Sequence record: OQ680138.1
Strand: one strand, 5' to 3'
From: Escherichia phage PH1061
DNA length: 39,968 nucleotides
Position 1 is the stretch's first letter. The number at the start of each line of letters is the position of its first letter. Below the pieces are notes generated by a model. It did no database searches and was not told the origin of the DNA. It saw only the letters and a program-made list of their open reading frames with translations. This document shows positions 24,590 through 39,968 of the stretch, one piece after another. Position numbers and translations under genes: made by a program.

Positions 24590-26872
24590 ATGGCTAGTAA
24601 TATTGAATCAGCTCTGGCTAATCGGACTATGGGTCGCGGCAGAGCGCCGGGTAAAACTATCGCTGTCAACTATCAAGCAGCCAGCATTCAGGCTCCGACT
24701 GGTGACTCCGGTCTGGCTCGTGCATTAACCAACTTCGTTGAGTCTGGGACTGGATTATACAAGCAGTTCAAAGACGAGGAGAAGACACGGGCCGACGAGC
24801 GGTCTAACGAGATTATCCGTAAGTTGACACCTCAGCAGAGACGTGAGGCTATCCAGAACGGCACATTGCTGTATCAGGATGACCCTTACGCTATGGAAGC
24901 ACTTCGAGTCAAGACTGGTCGTAATGCTGCCTTTGCTGTAGACGACGAGATTAACGTTAAGATTCAGAACGGTGAGTTCCGCACACGTCAGGAAATGGAA
25001 GAATATCGCCACCAGCGACTTCAGGATGCCGCTAAGTCCTATGCTGAAGAGGCGGGTATTAACCCTACCGATGAGTTCTTCCAGCGCGGGTTCAACGATA
25101 ACATCACTGACCGCAACATCGCTATCTATGGGTCCTTCAATAAGTATTTCAGTAAGCAGTCTGAAGAGACAGCAATGTTGAATACTCGTATTGAGATGAA
25201 CTCATTCCTGAACGATGGCGACCTGATGCGCTCACCTGAGTCCGGTAAGACCTTCATGGCCTACCTTCGTGATGGACTGACTACTGCTGCTATTCCTTCG
25301 GACCAGCGAGCACGGGAGGTCATTACCCAGACGGTCCGTGACGCAATCCAGAAGTCCGGCGGCTCAAACTTCCTACAGCAAGTACGAGGTGAGCGAATCA
25401 CCCTTAACGGTGTGGATGCTACAGTCGAAGAGATTGTAGGACCGGATGTCTTCAACGCTGCCATTGTTGAGGCACAAGGCACTGAGTACAAGCTGGTGGC
25501 TAAGTATCAGGAAGACTTGGCGTTAGGCGTTCAGTCTGCGATTCTTCAGGATGACCCGACCATAGGGCTGGCCCAGATTCAGAAACTCAAGGAGCAGAAC
25601 AACCTGCTTCAGCCGGGTGAAGAACTCACGCCTCAGCGTCAGATGCTTATTAATGCCGAAGCCAGCTTACTGGAAGCGGTCAAGCGGAAGTCTGCTGAAC
25701 AGGCGAAGGAGAACACTAAGTTAATCCAGACTCAGAACAAGCAACTGGTCATTGACCAAGTGTATCAGCGACGTCTGGCTGGGGATAACGTGTCCACCAA
25801 CTATGAGGACCTTCCGGTCTCAGATGCTACAGGCGAGTTCAAGCGTTCTGACATGAACAACTATGCGTCTGCCAAGCTACAGCAGATTGACCAGATGGAC
25901 ATTCCTGAGGCTGCTAAAGACGCTCAGAAGGTGGCATTGTTAAGAGCTGACACTAACAACGGTCCGTTCCGTAATGCCTTCCAGACGCTGACTCAGGACG
26001 CTGCTGGTGAGTGGCAATCTGCGGTAATCCGTGGACAGTACGACCCAGACAAGATGCAACGCTTCGAATCTCTTCGTCGGGCCTACACTCAGGACCCTTC
26101 AAGTTTTGCTGCTCTGTATCCTGACCAAGCCCAGTTGTTCTCTACGTTCGACCAGATGGACAAGATGGGTCTGGACCCTCAGACGATGATTGAAGCTGAT
26201 AAACAAGCTGCAAGTCAAAGCCGTGAGATGCGCATGGAGTCAGACAAGGCGTGGCAGGAGTTGAAGAACGACTCTCGGAATAAGGACCTTTCGCGTCTTC
26301 CTACGTCTCTGGACTCAAGTGCTCGTAAGGTCTGGGACTCATGGTACTATCGTACAGGTAACGCTGACGCTGCCACTCAGCAGACTCAACGCTGGCTGAA
26401 TGAGAACACCGTAACGTTCCAGTCTGAAGGTTCTGACGGTAAGTCCATCGGCATGGTGTCCAAGCACCAGCTTATGGTCGGGGATAACCCAGAGTCGTGG
26501 CAGGTTGGTCGAGACATTATCGACACCGCTCGTAAGCAGCTCATTAAGGCCAACCCTTGGGTAGTGAACTCTCAGTTGTCCGTTGTTGAACAGAACGGCT
26601 CTATCTTCCTCCAAGACGCTACAGGGACTATTCGTATTCGCTACGATAAAGAACTTGTAGGTAAACTCTACCGCGAACAACAGCAGAAGGCACAAGATGC
26701 CGCATACGCTCAGGCAGAACGTGACGCTAACAAGAGAGCGCGTATCGTCGGGACTAAAGCTGCTGGTGACAAACGTCGAGCTGACCGAGAGGCCAACATC
26801 GAGAAGCGCGGAGGGATGTACAATGACGTCTCATTGGAGGGTATCGCAAACGTACTAATCGGTAAGGAGTAA
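24590..26872 (+). CDS. 15: Internal virion protein C (gp15-like), 760 aa
   Basis: Size and position of T7 gp15 (747 aa); RBS GAGGAGG. Confidence 0.88.
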   Translation: MASNIESALANRTMGRGRAPGKTIAVNYQAASIQAPTGDSGLARALTNFVESGTGLYKQFKDEEKTRADERSNEIIRKLTPQQRREAIQNGTLLYQDDPYAMEALRVKTGRNAAFAVDDEINVKIQNGEFRTRQEMEEYRHQRLQDAAKSYAEEAGINPTDEFFQRGFNDNITDRNIAIYGSFNKYFSKQSEETAMLNTRIEMNSFLNDGDLMRSPESGKTFMAYLRDGLTTAAIPSDQRAREVITQTVRDAIQKSGGSNFLQQVRGERITLNGVDATVEEIVGPDVFNAAIVEAQGTEYKLVAKYQEDLALGVQSAILQDDPTIGLAQIQKLKEQNNLLQPGEELTPQRQMLINAEASLLEAVKRKSAEQAKENTKLIQTQNKQLVIDQVYQRRLAGDNVSTNYEDLPVSDATGEFKRSDMNNYASAKLQQIDQMDIPEAAKDAQKVALLRADTNNGPFRNAFQTLTQDAAGEWQSAVIRGQYDPDKMQRFESLRRAYTQDPSSFAALYPDQAQLFSTFDQMDKMGLDPQTMIEADKQAASQSREMRMESDKAWQELKNDSRNKDLSRLPTSLDSSARKVWDSWYYRTGNADAATQQTQRWLNENTVTFQSEGSDGKSIGMVSKHQLMVGDNPESWQVGRDIIDTARKQLIKANPWVVNSQLSVVEQNGSIFLQDATGTIRIRYDKELVGKLYREQQQKAQDAAYAQAERDANKRARIVGTKAAGDKRRADREANIEKRGGMYNDVSLEGIANVLIGKE

Positions 26873-26876
26873 CATA

Positions 26877-27326
26877 ATGAAGAACGGGACAGCCAGTGAG
26901 AGACTGGCAGAACTGTCAGTAACCGAAGAGTCTGGCTGTATCCGCTTCACCGGAAGCATTGAGAAGTCCGGTTATGGAAGGATAATGATTAATAGGGTAA
27001 AATATGGAGCGCATAGACTTGCTTACGAGCTTGCTAATGGTCCTATACCCGATGGGTACGTTGTTCGCCATAAATGCGACAACCCGTCCTGTATAAACCC
27101 AAGCCACCTTGAAGTTGGCACACAAGCTGACAACATAAAGGATAAGGTGACTAGAGGTCGCCAAGCATCAGGATGCTCCATAGGAGTATCTAAGCTCACT
27201 GAGGAAATTGTGAGAGACATAAGGTCCAGCGACCTAAAGGTTTCACTCTTGGCGGAACGATATGGAGTGAGTACGGTTTCTATTAGAAATATATTGAGGA
27301 GAAAGACATGGCAACACGTGGTGTAA
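26877..27326 (+). CDS. HNH homing endonuclease (family B), 149 aa, inserted between genes 15 and 16
   Basis: Motif RHKCDNPSCINPSHLEVGTQADN; paralog of 8049..8420; lower GC. Confidence 0.8.
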   Translation: MKNGTASERLAELSVTEESGCIRFTGSIEKSGYGRIMINRVKYGAHRLAYELANGPIPDGYVVRHKCDNPSCINPSHLEVGTQADNIKDKVTRGRQASGCSIGVSKLTEEIVRDIRSSDLKVSLLAERYGVSTVSIRNILRRKTWQHVV

Positions 27327-30300
27327 GGAACGCAAATCCGGGCAATATCCGTAAGTCAAAAGACCAGTGGGAAGGTGCTATAGGCGATGATGGTGCATTC
27401 GTTATCTTCGACAGTCCTGAATCTGGGGTCCGAGCATTAGCGAAAAACCTTCAAAGCTACGGTCGCCAAGGTTATGACTCCATCGAGAAGATTATCAACC
27501 GTTGGGCACCTCCGAACGAGAACGACACTCAGTCCTACATCGACTCGGTTGTATCTGCGACTGGTATTCCTGCAACTCAAAGTCTCGACCTATCGGACCC
27601 TGACACCCTGTCTTCTCTGGCTCAAGCTATCAGCTTCCATGAGACAGGCTCCCGGTACGACCCTGAAGTCTATCAGAAGGGAGTCGCACGAGCACTCAAT
27701 GGCATTAGCCCAAAGACTCCACCAGTAAGCGCTAACGTATTTGACGCACTCACGGAAGGACTCAAGGCTAAACCTAAAGTAGCTCTGGGCGAGAACCTTC
27801 CGACCGCTGCTGGTCTAAACATTGAGGGTCAAACACCTGAAGCTCCCAACGAATCGTTCGGGGAGATGTTCTATAAAGCTACTGGGGAGACCATGCAGGA
27901 ACGAGAGGACCGCTCTACGTGGTTCGGTTTTGGTGCTGCTACAGAAGCTGAAGTGAAGAACTCTATGGTCGGCGTGGCTATCCGCGCTGGTCAGACCGAG
28001 GACTCACTTGATGTCATTGGCGATGTGTTTAACCCTACCAGATGGAACAACCATAAGTGGACTCGCGAGGAGCTGGACCAGATTCGTAACGCGGGGGTTC
28101 TGCCTCAGTATTACGGAGTCATTACTGGTGGCTCTCCTCAGAACCTGACCGAGCTTATTAACTTGGCGCTTGAGAACCAGAAGTTGGACCAAGAGAAGGC
28201 CAAGGCTGGGACTGGCGCTCAGTTAGCTGCTGGTGTTATTGGTGCTGGTGTAGACCCTCTGACATACGTTCCTATTGCTGGACAGGTTGGTAAGGGCGCT
28301 AAGCTGGTTAATAAGATGTTCACCGTGGCTGCTCAATCTGGGGCACTGGTTGGTGTGTCTGAGATGGCCCGTACATCAGTGGCTGGTGGTGATGCTCATG
28401 TGGCTGAGGCTATCCTTGGTGGTGCTCTCTTCGGTGGTGGTATGACTGCTATCGCTGATGGCTTAGGCAGAGCCTTAGGTCGTAACACTAACGAGTTCGC
28501 TGGCCCAGCTACACGTCTGGAAGCCCGTGAGACTGCACGTAATGTTGATGGTCAGGACCTGTCTCGTCTACCTATTCAGGAAGGTGAGCAGACCTTTAGT
28601 CATCAAGGTGTTAAGTTCGCAGACGTTCCGAACGAGCCGGGTAGTGTACGACTGGAAGATGGTTCAATCCTGATTGGTGAGAACCCTCTGAACCCTAAGA
28701 CACGTCAAGTCTTTGACGAAGTGATTGAGCCAGAACGTGCCGCTGCTGGTGTGAACCTTGGTGGACTTACCGAGATTGGCCTGAAGCTGCTTCGGTCTGA
28801 GAACCCTGAGATTCGTGGAGTAGCTGCTGACTTAGTGCGTTCACCGACTGGTATGCAGTCTGGGGCCTCAGGTAAAATCGGGACCACTGCATCTGACGTA
28901 TTCGAGAGACTTCGTGCTGTAGACCATCGGTTCTACAACGACATCGACGATGCTGTTACTGAGGCACTCAAGGACCCTTACTTCCAGACAGCATTCTGGC
29001 GAGATAACTCAGCTCTGCGTGAGGATGTTTATAAGCGTTCGGCTTTGGCTATTGAGGATGGTAGCGGGAACCTGAAGGCTGAACTTACTCCGGGGGAACT
29101 GAAAGTCTATGACCTGCTGAAGAACCAGTTTGATGCAAAGCGCGAGATGATGGAGAACCCAGCGATGTTCGGTCGTACAGACGCTCAGTCTATCTTTCCT
29201 GGTAGTAGATTCAAGGGGACCTACGTTCCTGTAGTCTATAGTTCTCAGATGAAGCAGCTTTATATCAAGGAGCTTGGAAGCCCAGAGTCATTACAGGAGG
29301 CAATCAAGAAGTCATGGCTGACAAGCTATGTGTCAAGACCTGAAGTCAAGGCGCGAGTGGACGAGATGTTAGCAGAGCAGTTACGGGCGTCTCAGCCAGC
29401 AGCAGGTAAGACTGTGGGTACTACACCTAATCATCGTTCTTCTGTAGAAGCAGCCCGTGACCAGATGAAACTAGATGATGCCGCTACACAGGCAAGTGAT
29501 AAGGTAGCGGAACTAAAAGATGTCCTGACCAACGCTGAGAAGAGAGTTGCAGACCGTGAAAAGAAACTCCAGAACTCCAAGGACAGACTGGCTTCGCATG
29601 AAGCTAAGCTGAAGGAGTTGGAAGAAAAACTAGCTGCTAAACCTAAGAGCAAGACCATTCCTGTTAAGATTGAGAGTCGGAAGCAGATGATTGAGACCCA
29701 GAAGTCTCACGTCCGTATTAACACCGAGCGTCTCGACTACATGAAAGGACAGGCTGATAAGGTTCGAGATAGAATCACCAAAGCAACAACTGAAGCTGAA
29801 GCTGCTGTGGCATCTGCCAAAGGGCAGAAGTCTTCTGTAGATGGTCAGGCCACTACTGCTGGTGAAACTACATCTGGTAACGCATCTCAAGCAGCACCAG
29901 AGGTGACTATGGATATGGTAGAGAAGTATGCTAATGATAAGGCTTATGGTGTCTCCCATACAGAGCAGTTTGAGCGTTCATCCGTAATGGAAGAAAACAT
30001 CAACGGTCTGGTTGGTCTGGAGAACAATAACTTCCTTGAGGCTCGAAACCTGTTCGATAACGACATGGAAATCACCTTGCCAAATGGTAAGCCGTTCAGC
30101 GTAAATAGTCTACGTGAGTGGGATATGGACAAGATTGTCCCGGCCTACAACCGTCGAGTTAATGGTGACATTGCTATCATGGCTGGTACAGGAAAGACCA
30201 CGAAGGACATGAAGTACTTGGTTGAGACCATGATGAACAAGGCTGGTGATGACGGCAAGTTGAAAGGTGAGGTCTCGACCTTACGTGACACCTTGAAGAT

Positions 30301-31696
30301 TCTCACTGGTCGTGCTCGACGTGATGGTGCTGACGATGCTGCCTTCGCTACCGTGATGCGTACAATGACAGACCTATCGTTCTTCTCTAAGAATGCCTAC
30401 ATGGGTGTTCAGAACTTAACGGAGATTGGTGGTATGCTATCTCGTGGTAACGTTCGTGCATTGCTACATGGAGTCCCTATATTCCGTGACCTAGCCTTCC
30501 GTAACAAGAAGGTAGGGGCCTCAGAGATTAAGGACCTGCACAACGTTATCTTCGGTAAGGAACTGGATGACTCAATCCGTCCGTCTAAACAGGATGTCAT
30601 TGACCGTCTTCGAGCGTACAGTGCCTTGAGTAAACCATCGGCTACAGCTCTTGGGACTGCCAAGTATTACACTGGTGAACTTGCAGTACGCTCTCCGTTC
30701 ACTAAAGTCCTCAACGGTACGACCAACTACCTGTTAGACGCTGGACGTCAAGGCTTCCTGTCTGACATCGTGGAGCATAGTCTGACTGGTAGTAAGCGTA
30801 AGTTCGATGACCGCTGGCTGAAGACCTCTGGTATCTCTGACGAGCAGTGGAAGGGTATTAAGTCCCTAATCCGTGAGTCAGTGACTCGTGGTCCAGACGG
30901 GAAGTATACCATCAAGGATAAGAAGGCGTTCAGTCAGGACCCAAGGGCTATGGACCTGTGGCGTATGGGTGACACCATCGCTGACGAAACGTTACTCCGG
31001 CCCCACAAGCTGTCAAACATGGACGCCAAGGCTTATGGTCCTCTCGCTAAGACTGTCCTTCAGTTTAAGAACTTCGTCATCAAGTCCATCAATGGGCGTA
31101 CCATGCGAACCTTTTATAACGCCACGAAGAACAACCGAGCGATGGATGCTGCTCTGTCCACTGTGATGTCTATGGGTCTTGCTGGTATATACTACATGGC
31201 GCAGGCACACATCAAGGCTTACGCTATGCAGGATGGTCGTGACCGTGACTACCTCAAGCAAGCTCTGGACCCGACGATGATCGGATATGCGGCTCTGTCC
31301 CGTAGTTCACATCTCGGTGGACCACTTGGGGTAGCTAACATTCTGGGTGGTATCGCTGGGTACGAGGACACTAAGATGCTCCGTTCGTCTATCCTACCTC
31401 GGTCGCCTACAGAGAAGCCTGAACGTGCCATCGCGTATGGTGCAGCTACAAGTGACCCTGTGATGAATATTGTTGGCAACTTCTTGGAGCAGGTTCCAGC
31501 TTTCGGATATGCTGCTAACGTCGGCGCTTCGGCTTACAACTTGGCTGGTTACCTCAAGGCTGATACTCGTGTCAACGAGCGTGACTACATGACCGGGATG
31601 TATAATACGTTCCGTGAACTGGTTCCGAACGACCCCATTACCCAGAAGCTGTTGCTTGGAACGTTTGAGGAGCAAGGTATCCACATCAAGGACTAA
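27308..31696 (+). CDS. 16: Internal virion protein D (gp16-like), 1462 aa, with divergent N-terminal domain and an internal coiled-coil insertion
   Basis: Long colinear blocks with T7 gp16 from STWFGFGAATEAE... to the C-terminus (for example RSPTGMQSGASGKIG, NGDIAIMAGTGKTTK, LLDAGRQG). Confidence 0.93.
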   Translation: MATRGVRNANPGNIRKSKDQWEGAIGDDGAFVIFDSPESGVRALAKNLQSYGRQGYDSIEKIINRWAPPNENDTQSYIDSVVSATGIPATQSLDLSDPDTLSSLAQAISFHETGSRYDPEVYQKGVARALNGISPKTPPVSANVFDALTEGLKAKPKVALGENLPTAAGLNIEGQTPEAPNESFGEMFYKATGETMQEREDRSTWFGFGAATEAEVKNSMVGVAIRAGQTEDSLDVIGDVFNPTRWNNHKWTREELDQIRNAGVLPQYYGVITGGSPQNLTELINLALENQKLDQEKAKAGTGAQLAAGVIGAGVDPLTYVPIAGQVGKGAKLVNKMFTVAAQSGALVGVSEMARTSVAGGDAHVAEAILGGALFGGGMTAIADGLGRALGRNTNEFAGPATRLEARETARNVDGQDLSRLPIQEGEQTFSHQGVKFADVPNEPGSVRLEDGSILIGENPLNPKTRQVFDEVIEPERAAAGVNLGGLTEIGLKLLRSENPEIRGVAADLVRSPTGMQSGASGKIGTTASDVFERLRAVDHRFYNDIDDAVTEALKDPYFQTAFWRDNSALREDVYKRSALAIEDGSGNLKAELTPGELKVYDLLKNQFDAKREMMENPAMFGRTDAQSIFPGSRFKGTYVPVVYSSQMKQLYIKELGSPESLQEAIKKSWLTSYVSRPEVKARVDEMLAEQLRASQPAAGKTVGTTPNHRSSVEAARDQMKLDDAATQASDKVAELKDVLTNAEKRVADREKKLQNSKDRLASHEAKLKELEEKLAAKPKSKTIPVKIESRKQMIETQKSHVRINTERLDYMKGQADKVRDRITKATTEAEAAVASAKGQKSSVDGQATTAGETTSGNASQAAPEVTMDMVEKYANDKAYGVSHTEQFERSSVMEENINGLVGLENNNFLEARNLFDNDMEITLPNGKPFSVNSLREWDMDKIVPAYNRRVNGDIAIMAGTGKTTKDMKYLVETMMNKAGDDGKLKGEVSTLRDTLKILTGRARRDGADDAAFATVMRTMTDLSFFSKNAYMGVQNLTEIGGMLSRGNVRALLHGVPIFRDLAFRNKKVGASEIKDLHNVIFGKELDDSIRPSKQDVIDRLRAYSALSKPSATALGTAKYYTGELAVRSPFTKVLNGTTNYLLDAGRQGFLSDIVEHSLTGSKRKFDDRWLKTSGISDEQWKGIKSLIRESVTRGPDGKYTIKDKKAFSQDPRAMDLWRMGDTIADETLLRPHKLSNMDAKAYGPLAKTVLQFKNFVIKSINGRTMRTFYNATKNNRAMDAALSTVMSMGLAGIYYMAQAHIKAYAMQDGRDRDYLKQALDPTMIGYAALSRSSHLGGPLGVANILGGIAGYEDTKMLRSSILPRSPTEKPERAIAYGAATSDPVMNIVGNFLEQVPAFGYAANVGASAYNLAGYLKADTRVNERDYMTGMYNTFRELVPNDPITQKLLLGTFEEQGIHIKD

Positions 31697-31714
31697 ACTA
31701 TCACTATAGGAAAC
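31692..31714 (+). promoter_or_regulatory. Phage RNAP promoter (phi17-like), CTAAACTATCACTATAGGAA
   Basis: Consensus match; overlaps the gp16 stop. Confidence 0.85.
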
Positions 31715-31760: not shown

Positions 31761-33881
31761 ATGTCCACTATTACACAATTCCCTTCAGGCAACACTCAGT
31801 ACAGGATTGAGTTCGACTACCTAGCCAGAACGTTTGTTGTTGTTACGCTGGTGAATAGCTCTAACCCTACCCTGAACCGTGTACTGGAAGTTGGTCGAGA
31901 TTACCGATTCCTTAATCCAACGATGATTGAGATGTTGGTTGACCAATCAGGTTTCGACATCGTTCGTATTCACCGTCAGACTGGAACTGACTTAGTAGTA
32001 GACTTCAGGAATGGCTCAGTGTTGACAGCTAGTGACCTGACCAATGCAGAGCTTCAGGCTATCCATATTGCAGAAGAAGGTCGAGACCAAACTGTTGACT
32101 TAGCGAAGGAATATGCCGATGCTGCTGGTAGCTCTGCTGGCAACGCTAAGGATAGCGAGGACGAAGCACGACGAATCGCTGCGACTATCAAGGCAGCTAG
32201 TCTAGTTGGTTATATTACCCGTCGCTCCTTCGAGAAAGGCTTCAACGTTACAACATGGAACGAGGCCCTGCTATGGGAAGAGGATGGCGATTATTACCGC
32301 TGGGATGGTACGCTTCCAAAGAACGTTCCTGCTGGCTCAACTCCTGAAACGTCTGGTGGCATTGGGTTAGGAGCGTGGGTTAGTGTCGGCGATGCTACAT
32401 TGCGCAATCAAATATCTGACCCTGACGGTGCCACTAAGTACCCAGCGTTACAAATTGCGCGTTGGCGTGATGAAGGAGATGTGCGCGGTTGGGGTACTGG
32501 CGAAGAAGGTTTTAACGCCGCGATGTCTGAGTTGTCAGCTAATGGGGGTGGCACACTATTCGTTAATGAGGATATACTCTTTACATCCCTTCCTATTATG
32601 CACAAAGAGCATGTAACTGTGCGATGGAACGCTGTAGCTAAAGTTAAGTCAGGCTTGACTGCTGAATATGCTTATATAATGGATGGTGGAGCAGATACTC
32701 CTGCATACAACAGTTCCCATCACTTTACTAAAGCTAACAAAACAAATTGCTATAACCTCTTCTTAGTAGCAGAGGATTATACAACAGGTATTTCTGCTAA
32801 AGGTGTTTGTGTGCGCCATTGCTACGAATGGACTTACGAAGGGGGGGCAATTATCGGGTTTAATAATGGAGGTTTCTACGAGACTAACAACTACGAAGGA
32901 AAAGCCAGCAAATTCACGATGGTTGTAGCTAATACAAGACTTGATAATTCTGTAGGATTTGAAAGTAATTCAACTGACAGTTGGTTTAGTGAACTTTCTC
33001 CAGTTGGTTATTCAATTGGTCTAAAGTTTAATAAGAGCGCAAATGTGGTTGATAAGGCACACCCCTGGGGTAATACAGTTAACAATCTTGTAGGCGCAAT
33101 GGGGCAGATGAATGTTGGTATTGTAATTACAGAGAACGCAGGTTTTTCTACATATTCAAATATTATTCTTGATACTCCGGTAAGGAAGAACACCAATAAG
33201 ACACCATCTAGAAGCAATGGTGGGGTTGGTGTAATTTGTGATGCATGGGACTGCGTTCTTGATGGTATTCTTGTATTACCGTCCAGACATGACACAGTAG
33301 CAAAAAGTACCTTACCAATGATCACCACTATGCAAAGATCAACAATAAAAGATTTTCAGGTTTCGGGGGAGCAGTATGTAACAGACATATGGATTTCATT
33401 TGAAAACAATTCAGGGATAGCCAGGAATCACGTTTCAGGTTATGGGTATGCTGAAAAAATGCGTACAGGAATGACCTTTGGACCCAATTCAGGGGCTGTT
33501 CTTGCAAGTGCTGATGGTGTAACGATGTCGAGCCAAACTCTGACCTCTGGAATATGGTATAACACATTAAGTTTTTCCATAGCTACAACAATAACAGCTA
33601 TACCGTCAGCAACAGGTGATGTAATTGTTAATATAACTCCTGCTTATGGCGTTAAATCTGGATTCGGTGGTACAGTTAAGGGTGGCATGTACGCATTTTA
33701 CTACGCCACAGCAAACTCAGCCAAACAATTATATGATGTTTCCTTAGAGGTAGTGTCAGATAATACCGCTAAGTTCTTATTGACATTCATAGATGGAACT
33801 ACTCGGTACGCACACTGGACAGATGTATCTAACGGTTCAGCAAGAGCCATAAGTATATCAGGAGTCATTAATATAAAATAA
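31761..33881 (+). CDS. 17: Tail fiber/tailspike, 706 aa: T7 gp17-like N-terminal adaptor domain fused to a non-T7, AT-rich C-terminal receptor-binding module
   Basis: N-terminal FDYLARTFVVVTLVN...DYRF...LQAIHIAEEGRD matches the T7 gp17 N-terminus; downstream part has no T7 similarity and a clear GC drop from about 32560. Confidence 0.9.
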   Translation: MSTITQFPSGNTQYRIEFDYLARTFVVVTLVNSSNPTLNRVLEVGRDYRFLNPTMIEMLVDQSGFDIVRIHRQTGTDLVVDFRNGSVLTASDLTNAELQAIHIAEEGRDQTVDLAKEYADAAGSSAGNAKDSEDEARRIAATIKAASLVGYITRRSFEKGFNVTTWNEALLWEEDGDYYRWDGTLPKNVPAGSTPETSGGIGLGAWVSVGDATLRNQISDPDGATKYPALQIARWRDEGDVRGWGTGEEGFNAAMSELSANGGGTLFVNEDILFTSLPIMHKEHVTVRWNAVAKVKSGLTAEYAYIMDGGADTPAYNSSHHFTKANKTNCYNLFLVAEDYTTGISAKGVCVRHCYEWTYEGGAIIGFNNGGFYETNNYEGKASKFTMVVANTRLDNSVGFESNSTDSWFSELSPVGYSIGLKFNKSANVVDKAHPWGNTVNNLVGAMGQMNVGIVITENAGFSTYSNIILDTPVRKNTNKTPSRSNGGVGVICDAWDCVLDGILVLPSRHDTVAKSTLPMITTMQRSTIKDFQVSGEQYVTDIWISFENNSGIARNHVSGYGYAEKMRTGMTFGPNSGAVLASADGVTMSSQTLTSGIWYNTLSFSIATTITAIPSATGDVIVNITPAYGVKSGFGGTVKGGMYAFYYATANSAKQLYDVSLEVVSDNTAKFLLTFIDGTTRYAHWTDVSNGSARAISISGVINIK

Positions 33882-39582: not shown

Positions 39583-39908
39583 TGAGTAAATCTTATGGCA
39601 TCAACTTGGTCCATGCATTTGACGCAGACCTTAATCTGCTTTCAGCACTAGCTACAGGCTACCGTCACGGGACCTCAAGTCACACCATTCGTCAACAGCA
39701 GGAGCGTGACCGTGTACTACAGGCACGACTACGGGCCGAGGGACATAAGGCCGAGCTGATGTGTCTGGCGTATGGTGGACGACCAATCACCGACGATGGT
39801 AAACTTCTGGTCTCAGGCTGGAAGGCGATAGACCAACGGTCAACCATCAAGCACACGACTCATGGTGACTTCAGTCATCTTCACGCTAACCCACTGATAT
39901 GCAAGTAA
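39582..39908 (+). CDS. Hypothetical early protein, 108 aa, at the position of T7 gene 0.7; no protein-kinase motifs
   Basis: TAATG coupling with the previous ORF; the 3' end is duplicated at window positions 1..51. Confidence 0.6.
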   Translation: MSKSYGINLVHAFDADLNLLSALATGYRHGTSSHTIRQQQERDRVLQARLRAEGHKAELMCLAYGGRPITDDGKLLVSGWKAIDQRSTIKHTTHGDFSHLHANPLICK

Positions 39909-39913
39909 TTCTG

Positions 39914-39936
39914 ACTTAACTATCACTATAGGACTC
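39914..39936 (+). promoter_or_regulatory. Phage RNAP promoter upstream of the RNAP gene (same element as 57..79)
   Basis: TTAACTATCACTATAGGA. Confidence 0.7.
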
Positions 39937-39968
39937 AAGGTCTAAGACTCCAAGTGAAAGACCAAAGA

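Follow-up and report, generated by a model that had tools for sequence, protein, structure and literature searches.

The genome of Escherichia phage PH1061 (sequence record OQ680138.1) was analysed over its whole length of 39,968 nucleotides (nt), referred to here as the window, which represents a nearly complete T7-like genome of the genus Kayfunavirus. Its gene for gp16, the ejection protein also termed internal virion protein D, contains an in-frame insertion, and modelling and heptad analysis identify the inserted module as a predicted antiparallel two-helix coiled-coil hairpin of about 130 residues that would fold independently and is optional in gp16. Codon-level comparisons of gp16 genes further identify the module as a cassette that moves between T7-like phages of different genera, and the site that it occupies is a hotspot for optional modules rather than the mark of a single event. 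gp16 is among the first phage proteins inside the cell and governs the entry of T7-like genomes, and we judge it reasonably probable that the module is a mobile accessory arm on the cytoplasmic face of the ejectosome, the tip of which would bind a partner and so tune or protect early entry.

The gp16 of PH1061 is homologous from end to end to that of T7. It matches PHROG 342, annotated as ‘internal virion protein with endolysin domain’, over aa (amino acids) 7–1460 (E = 0, 1044 bits) and the solved chains 9vvp_L (2707 bits) and 7eyb_I (1284 bits) in the PDB, and it is 51% identical to T7 gp16 over the full alignment and 95–97% identical to the gp16 of the Kayfunavirus phages CR44b and ST31. 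At the nucleotide level, the gp16 genes of Escherichia phages ZH4 and ST31 are 94% identical to that of PH1061. The gene, an open reading frame (ORF), and the two conserved blocks that bracket the insertion, both placed by alignment, are located as follows.

27308–31696, + strand: gp16 (internal virion protein D, ejection protein), ORF of 1462 aa that carries the insertion
29333–29371, + strand: left conserved block SRPEVKARVDEML, aa 676–688, the left anchor of the hotspot
29900–29950, + strand: right conserved block EVTMDMVEKYANDKAYG, aa 865–881, with the last codon, G881, at 29948–29950

Between these blocks lie 176 aa (aa 689–864, nt 29372–29899). The spacing from RPEVKARVDE, which is invariant in a five-sequence gp16 alignment, to KYAxDKAYG is 186 aa in PH1061 and only 17 aa in T7. 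In CR44b, a Citrobacter phage of the genus Kayfunavirus, it is 19 aa; apart from this difference the gp16 of CR44b is 95% identical, and its loop at the insertion site has the context ALLEADPTLTPEGLAAAVD. The net insertion is therefore 167–169 aa (relative to CR44b and T7, respectively). The nucleotide identity of the left block to T7 is 77–80%, compared with 33–57% only a few codons upstream. A preliminary description of this DNA had proposed that gp16, compared with that of T7, has some 165 aa inserted, and the alignment of orthologs upholds both the insertion, which is in frame, and its coordinates, which were right to within 3 nt. The accompanying suggestion that the insert explains the extra length of the protein (1462 as opposed to 1318 aa) holds fully against CR44b, since the whole 167-aa difference from its 1295-aa gp16 is insert, and only approximately against T7, where the 169 aa gained are partly offset by an N-terminal part that is 25 aa shorter (block start at residue 677 rather than 702), leaving a difference of 144 aa. 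Alanine (28 of the 176 residues), lysine (22), glutamate (15), threonine (15) and serine (14) are prominent in the composition of the insert, which is basic (isoelectric point (pI) 9.6, net charge +7), whereas the remainder of gp16 is acidic (pI 5.8, net charge −11). The peptide quoted in the preliminary description corresponds to aa 734–780.

The insert has a restricted distribution. A tblastn search with the insert-less CR44b segment as query returned 1275 phage records with a gp16 homologue, and the insert was found in 19 of about 1275. Of the 1275 rows, 60 were inspected at even spacing, and 58 of them covered at least 98% of the query; 56 of these spanned 591–609 nt, and hence had no insert, and two carried an insert. 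On these counts the insert is real, rare and not ancestral to the family, and the possibility, raised beforehand, that the segment might be universal among orthologs is answered by its absence from about 98% of gp16 homologues. It is likewise present in none of the solved gp16 structures (7eyb, 7k5c and 6yt5 of T7, and the Kayfunavirus-type 9vvp_L). The module occurs in four genera of the Studiervirinae, with carriers in Kayfunavirus (PH1061, ST31, ZH4, CY1 and Kc166A), Teseptimavirus (NC-A, JacobBurckhardt and Yep_9), Berlinvirus (PZJ0206, Carena, P483 and A7) and Przondovirus (VIPKPNMC04), and in two phages, Bas105 and phi1_146017, whose records give no genus. The set used for evolutionary comparison comprised the gp16 of 15 module-carrying phages and of three without the module.

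An AlphaFold2 single-sequence model of aa 661–895, assessed by its predicted local distance difference test (pLDDT) scores, together with heptad analysis and conservation, divides the insert into the following parts.

29372–29431, + strand: N-terminal linker, aa 689–708, rich in P, G and T; pLDDT below 50 at aa 699–709 (model residues 39–49)
29432–29638, + strand: predicted helix 1, aa 709–777 (model residues 49–117), in a single heptad register
29639–29653, + strand: predicted hairpin turn KPKSK, aa 778–782, non-helical in the model (residues 118–122), with a proline at aa 779
29654–29845, + strand: predicted helix 2, aa 783–846 (model residues 123–186), in a single heptad register, net charge +4
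29846–29899, + strand: C-terminal linker, aa 847–864, rich in T, S, G and A and acidic (pI 4.05); pLDDT below 50 at aa 843–862 (model residues 183–202)
29525–29737, + strand: most conserved part, the hairpin's distal half with the turn, aa 740–810 (near-invariance in 15 sequences from four genera; ratio of nonsynonymous to synonymous substitution (dN/dS) 0.07)

Mean pLDDT in blocks of 10 residues is 90–98 over aa 721–830. Hydrophobic residues occupy 74–78% of the a and d positions compared with 15–22% of the others, in one register per helix, and the heptad score of each helix is reached by 0 of 2000 shuffled sequences; the strongest heptad windows of the entire protein fall in the insert. Two long helices (69 and 64 residues) with sustained a/d periodicity place the segment among coiled coils, as its strong heptad character had already led the preliminary description to propose. 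With 64–69 residues per arm and a rise of about 1.5 Å per residue, the predicted hairpin would be roughly 10 nm long, and it probably hangs from an inter-helix loop of the C-terminal part of the protein (gp16-C) on two linkers that are variable and likely to be flexible. The high pLDDT of a monomer model and the kind of structure that it retrieves, namely hairpins such as YscO and Smc arms, bear weakly on whether the helices pack within one molecule or form bundles between subunits.

Database searches place the module with no known family. Foldseek comparison with the PDB and BFVD retrieved nothing more specific than two-helix hairpins and coiled coils of a generic kind (YscO, Smc arm, Vipp1), none better than E = 0.003 and so none at E ≤ 0.001, and in Pfam, PHROGs, NCBIfam and PADLOC the insert gave only sub-threshold coiled-coil noise (GAS, SMC, Rad50, JetC, LmuB). 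Among 1.8 billion representative proteins, HMMER detected no genuine homologue outside gp16, its matches P0004 and P0005 being repetitive coiled-coil proteins. A word-indexed search of 5.8 billion proteins returned only gp16 fragments (176, 231 and 623 aa), one of them, of 176 aa, with the insert alone and two with the insert plus flanks, and never a full-length gp16 despite the many in GenBank; this database may under-sample very long proteins, and the lack of a hit among proteins of the size of gp16 is therefore not to be read as absence. The arms of SMC, Rad50 and JetC, YscO and the hairpin of Vipp1/PspA are the best matches, weak as they are, and share with the insert two long heptad helices folded back on each other. 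They differ from it in that scores of 15–19 bits compare with cut-offs of 200–1000, and the insert has no ATPase head, hinge or zinc hook; the likeness is compositional and architectural and not one of homology. Assignment to the SMC/Rad50/JetC group in particular fails at 18.8 bits against a cut-off of 567 in NCBIfam and 15.6 bits in PADLOC, with only arm regions aligned. An intein or other self-splicing element was also rejected, as the insert starts with AEQLR and ends with QAAP followed by EVT, junction residues that do not fit, no Hint or intein family was matched in Pfam or NCBIfam, and the predicted fold is all-helical. The insert of PH1061 has no Pfam GNAT match and is not assigned to that family either.

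Codon comparisons identify purifying selection on the module, strongest at the tip of the hairpin. Pairwise dN/dS of the core has a median of 0.13 over all pairs and is about 0.1–0.2 overall, and for the tip (aa 740–810) it is 0.07 at synonymous divergences (dS) of 0.55–0.96 from the most diverged alleles, those of Kc166A and Bas105. Across the 15 gp16 sequences that carry the insert, the tip hardly varies, with a/d and surface positions both conserved, and only one of the five columns of the turn KPKSK varies across genera. By contrast with this, every column varies in the linkers (aa 689–712 and aa 842–864).

The core of the module is far more similar between genera than the protein that contains it, at 88–98% nucleotide identity compared with 57–67% for the gp16 backbone. 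Between PH1061 and the copies outside Kayfunavirus (in Teseptimavirus, Berlinvirus and Przondovirus), aa 712–823 are 89–92% identical in amino acid and 90–93% in nucleotide sequence, whereas the rest of gp16 in the same phages is 49–57% and 54–61% identical, respectively. Since dS is 0.20–0.39 in the core and saturated in the flanks (at least 1.6), this similarity is attributed to recent transfer and not to stronger constraint. With two of the Teseptimavirus phages the shared region is delimited by sliding identity along the codon alignment.

29285–29947, + strand: aa ~660–880, tract of high nucleotide identity (~80–100%) with Teseptimavirus phages NC-A and JacobBurckhardt, an apparent recombination tract

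Outside this tract, nucleotide identity to NC-A and JacobBurckhardt drops to 30–70%. Shorter tracts are shared with Przondovirus (~aa 680–875) and with P483, A7 and Yep_9 (only ~aa 712–830), the last three having unrelated linkers around the hairpin, so that breakpoints differ between lineages and the unit common to all coincides with the predicted hairpin. As to the direction of transfer, NC-A has a left flank that resembles Kayfunavirus, while the right end of the module (EVTMDMVE) resembles T7. The tree of the core is incongruent with the backbone trees. Crossovers lie either within the linkers or in the two conserved blocks that flank them, SRPEVKARVDE and KYAxDKAYG. The alleles of Kc166A and Bas105, the most diverged, are 79–85% identical to the rest in nucleotide sequence, and the module has therefore been circulating for some time.

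The same site can accommodate another module. In Klebsiella phage P7124, an unrelated segment of 209 aa (L003 3532–4158) occupies the insertion site, and its 115-aa globular core was found in 14 phage records, always within gp16, in phages of Klebsiella, Enterobacter, Shigella, Pectobacterium, Escherichia and Yersinia. The copy in Shigella phage A7 scores 24.9 bits (E = 2.6e-5) on the Pfam GNAT model PF00583, above the cut-off of 20.7, and that of P7124 falls just under the cut-off (18.4 bits); the word-indexed search returned nothing for this GNAT-like module, in a database from which very long proteins may be missing or under-sampled. In A7 (L017 590–5521) the hairpin and the GNAT-like module stand in tandem, with 348 aa between the conserved blocks. 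The A7 hairpin is preceded by TENFLRSQE and followed by AENFLRGAE, a repetition of one motif that suggests unequal recombination between the two types of insert. The preliminary description, although borne out as to the insertion itself, had missed both its horizontal mobility between genera and the nature of the site as a hotspot. Domain mosaicism of podovirus ejection proteins is already known in general (PMC8954989); literature searches for an earlier description of the insert, of the hotspot, of a GNAT domain in gp16 or of PDB entry 9VVP found none, and the gp16 insert, hotspot and GNAT-like domain are apparently undescribed.

The position of the hotspot in gp16 bears on what the module may do. 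The insertion site corresponds to residues 712–728 of T7 gp16, and G881, I898 and E905 of PH1061, all conserved, are the equivalents of T7 G737, I754 and E761. In T7, the changes G737D, I754T and E761K fall in a stretch of 127 residues in which mutations allow transcription-independent entry of the whole genome, and gp16-C (residues 411–1118) has DNA-binding activity and has been placed in a cytoplasmic toroid seen by tomography (PMC8954989). The periplasmic tunnel is assigned to gp15 and residues 1–228 of gp16, with putative membrane segments at 243–410 and 1119–1290 (PMC8954989; bioRxiv 10.1101/2021.01.04.424714). Mutants of phage T3 that escape the combined defences Druantia III and Zorya II carry gp16 I754N or G759D, and T3 gp16 supplied in trans enhanced the synergy of the two systems, an effect credited by the authors to activation of the Druantia branch (bioRxiv 10.64898/2026.05.12.724681). 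On this mapping of positions, the hotspot precedes G881, the counterpart of T7 G737, by 17 residues; at that residue begins the DNA-entry ‘clamp’ stretch, which controls entry and in which the T3 escape mutations also map.

This location, the T3 escape changes and the cytoplasmic model of gp16-C together make it probable that the hairpin is a basic arm. As gp16-C is modelled as a DNA-binding hub extending into the host cytoplasm, the hairpin (on an otherwise acidic protein) would be displayed on the cytoplasmic face of the ejectosome, where its conserved tip probably binds a partner, be it DNA on its way in, some factor of the host or a sensor of a defence system. Such binding would modulate the start of genome entry or shield it, and the arm would then be neither part of the channel wall nor an extension of the conduit. 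Several points weigh against this proposal. Its functional part is inferred, and purifying selection could simply reflect the need for solubility and foldability in an essential protein that is packaged and ejected. The sequences are few and closely related, given the high identity across genera, so that the conservation patterns are statistically weak. The antiparallel packing is deduced from pLDDT, from secondary structure and from the kind of structure that Foldseek matched, all of them weak (best E = 0.02), and gp16-C has itself been placed in the cytoplasm by a composite model and not by a solved structure. Lastly, neither HMMER nor the word-indexed search provided a homologue outside gp16 that would hint at a function.

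We regard a further explanation as possible though doubtful. The gp16 loop ahead of the clamp would be a cargo slot that delivers interchangeable modules (the hairpin, the GNAT-like module or both) into the cytoplasm on the ejectosome before phage genes are expressed, and the invariant tip would bind a host factor that acts at DNA entry and neutralise or evade it. Candidate targets would be an enzyme directed against the incoming end of the DNA or a sensor that recognises the adjacent stretch of gp16, a recognition reported between Druantia III and the gp16 of T3, and the rapid spread over four genera would reflect selection by host defences.

About as doubtful is the explanation that the module is a neutral passenger, harmless filler in a loop that tolerates insertions, spread by hitch-hiking on recombination in the conserved flanks. 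The rarity of the module and its dispensability for the family fit such a passenger, as do its lack of a detectable homologue or domain signature, and two unrelated modules at one site imply a permissive loop; the flexible linkers predicted by the model would also suggest that docking on gp16 is unneeded. Filler is difficult to reconcile with a dN/dS of 0.07–0.2 that follows a gradient, from a nearly invariant tip to a base and linkers that are free to vary. Coiled coils usually tolerate substitutions at their surface, which counts further against a passenger. The module is moreover fixed in at least four genera, and its diverged alleles (79–85% nucleotide identity) show no frameshift or decay.

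A role inside the virion, before ejection, is less likely again. Here the hairpins might bundle in the gp16 tetramer on top of the core stack or touch the packaged DNA, stabilising the core or the DNA spool. Within the capsid, the distal end of the core does consist of a four-fold ring of gp16, a basic arm could contact DNA, and coiled coils often mediate oligomerisation. Siblings without the insert nevertheless build the same core, as exemplified by PDB 9vvp_L, a 1295-aa Kayfunavirus-type gp16 that has no insert; the flexible tethers of the predicted structure would argue against a fixed structural role, and an enzyme-like GNAT module in the same slot would be left unexplained.

The preliminary description had itself proposed that the coiled coil could lengthen the trans-envelope ejection channel, which now appears very improbable. 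The insert is a long, helical part of an ejectosome component, and a length of some 10 nm gives the idea its appeal. It is contradicted by the location of the site in gp16-C, modelled in the cytoplasmic toroid and apart from the tunnel, and by a predicted topology in which both ends of the hairpin return to one loop, making a side arm that would not extend the path of the chain. The insert-less majority of gp16 homologues also includes nearly identical Kayfunavirus siblings that infect similar enterobacterial hosts with the same envelope, and a globular GNAT-like domain, which elsewhere fills the slot, would make no sense as channel wall.

An assembly error or a tandem duplication of neighbouring gp16 sequence, for which the low-complexity composition of the insert and the permuted assembly with its 111-nt end overlap could be cited, can be set aside almost entirely, since 19 records deposited independently of one another have the same insert in the same place, which is therefore no assembly artefact, the reading frame stays open under purifying selection, and repeats do not exceed chance level. 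Tandem-duplication signatures had been suggested as a check, and none that is meaningful emerged: Tandem Repeats Finder reported only a 15-nt CTGAAG run in the insert region, direct repeats are no longer than 16 nt, direct and inverted repeats together no longer than 25 nt and imperfect, and no meaningful repeats were found flanking the insert. The notion of a compositional island is uninformative, because the G+C content of the insert (0.45–0.49; upstream 0.50–0.54) is equally low in downstream gp16 (0.45–0.50).

Several known systems offer points of comparison. T4 IPI* and Alt, P1 DarA and DarB and the virion RNA polymerase of N4 are packaged in the head, injected and act in the host. With the possible cargo slot they have in common the concept of a polypeptide delivered with the genome before phage gene expression; they are separate proteins or whole enzymes with demonstrated activity, whereas the candidate in PH1061 is an insert in an essential channel or hub protein. 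The N4 virion RNA polymerase has been described as an injected protein (PMC13434306). In the mosaicism of podovirus ejection proteins, accessory modules are likewise gained, lost and swapped among homologous proteins, and in K1E and K1-5 the lysozyme domain is carried by gp15-like proteins instead of gp16 (PMC8954989). The mosaicism so described concerns terminal, enzymatic domains of the periplasm, while that of PH1061 involves an internal and non-enzymatic coiled-coil cassette in the putatively cytoplasm-facing part, and goes beyond it in its direct evidence of recent transfer between genera and in the GNAT-like module that alternates in the slot. T7 gp16 (7eyb, 7k5c, 6yt5) and the Kayfunavirus-type ‘Gp29’ (9vvp_L) resemble PH1061 gp16 in full-length homology, in the gene order gp15–gp16–gp17 and in the retention of the clamp residues, and differ in having only a 17–19-aa loop between the blocks in place of the 176-aa segment; the N-terminal hydrolase of PH1061 is also not of the SLT type of T7.

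If the arm is functional, the slot would provide a natural handle on the poorly understood cytoplasmic part of the ejectosome, and a candidate route by which pre-made modules for counter-defence or host takeover enter the cell. Phages with and without the insert are already held in culture collections (JacobBurckhardt/Bas65 and Bas105 being named examples), and the site is a permissive place for engineering cargo into T7-like phages for therapeutic or diagnostic use. Should the module prove a neutral passenger, it would still mark a tolerated insertion site and a clear example of mosaicism below the level of the gene.

The N-terminal end of PH1061 gp16 departs from T7 in its own way. The first ~130 aa (27308–27700), a cell-wall hydrolase domain, give no meaningful alignment with the SLT-type domain of T7 and no Pfam match, and PH1061 gp16 does not have the SLT-type lytic transglycosylase domain with its catalytic glutamate (T7 E37). 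The domain matches instead a solved 170-aa ‘Endolysin’ (PDB 7q47_A, E = 8.6e-12) as well as endolysin and tape-measure families in PHROG. A non-SLT domain at this end is typical of Kayfunavirus gp16 and is unconnected with the insert.

The surroundings of the gene in the structural operon also agree with those of T7-type gp16, which is flanked by gp15 on one side and by the gene for the tail fibre or tailspike on the other. A gp15-like ORF of 760 aa (24590–26872) is followed by an HNH ORF, gp16 and an ORF of 706 aa (31761–33881), and annotated relatives are arranged alike. The HNH ORF (149 aa, 26877–27326, + strand) overlaps the start of gp16 by 19 nt; it is annotated as ‘predicted homing endonuclease 7.7C’ in CR44b, is also present in ZH4, and is absent from ST31, P7124 and Bas105, and Przondovirus VIPKPNMC04 has a 135-aa HNH gene at its gp15/gp16 junction. 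This gene is mobile, and whether a phage has it does not depend on the insert in gp16. As a vehicle for the insert it was rejected, since CR44b carries the HNH gene but no insert, the converse is true of ST31, and the tract of high identity stops short of the HNH gene.

A nested gene or internal transcription unit in the insert was rejected as well: no phage promoter was detected between 23506 and 31697, sigma-70 and terminator-like sites are not in excess in the insert, no Shine–Dalgarno sequence precedes an internal ATG at 29465, and the insert is translated as part of gp16. An antisense ORF of 109 aa (29630–29959, − strand) in the insert region, rich in Cys, Ser and Leu and supported by none of the searches, is probably spurious.

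With regard to the ends of the window, nt 1–111 are identical to nt 39858–39968, and the sequence begins just upstream of the RNA polymerase gene (149–2830). The window thus seems to be a circularly permuted assembly whose ends overlap, and not to show the natural ends of the genome; the unit length would then be 39,857 bp. A phage promoter core, ACTATCACTATAGG..., has 11 matches in the window, all on the + strand, compared with 0.03 expected by chance.

62–79, 3382, 5417, 6397, 15134, 17959, 18947, 23489, 31697, 37021 and 39919, + strand: phage promoter core (motif matches)

The match at 31697–31714 is exact and lies directly 3′ of the stop codon of gp16, where CR44b is annotated likewise.

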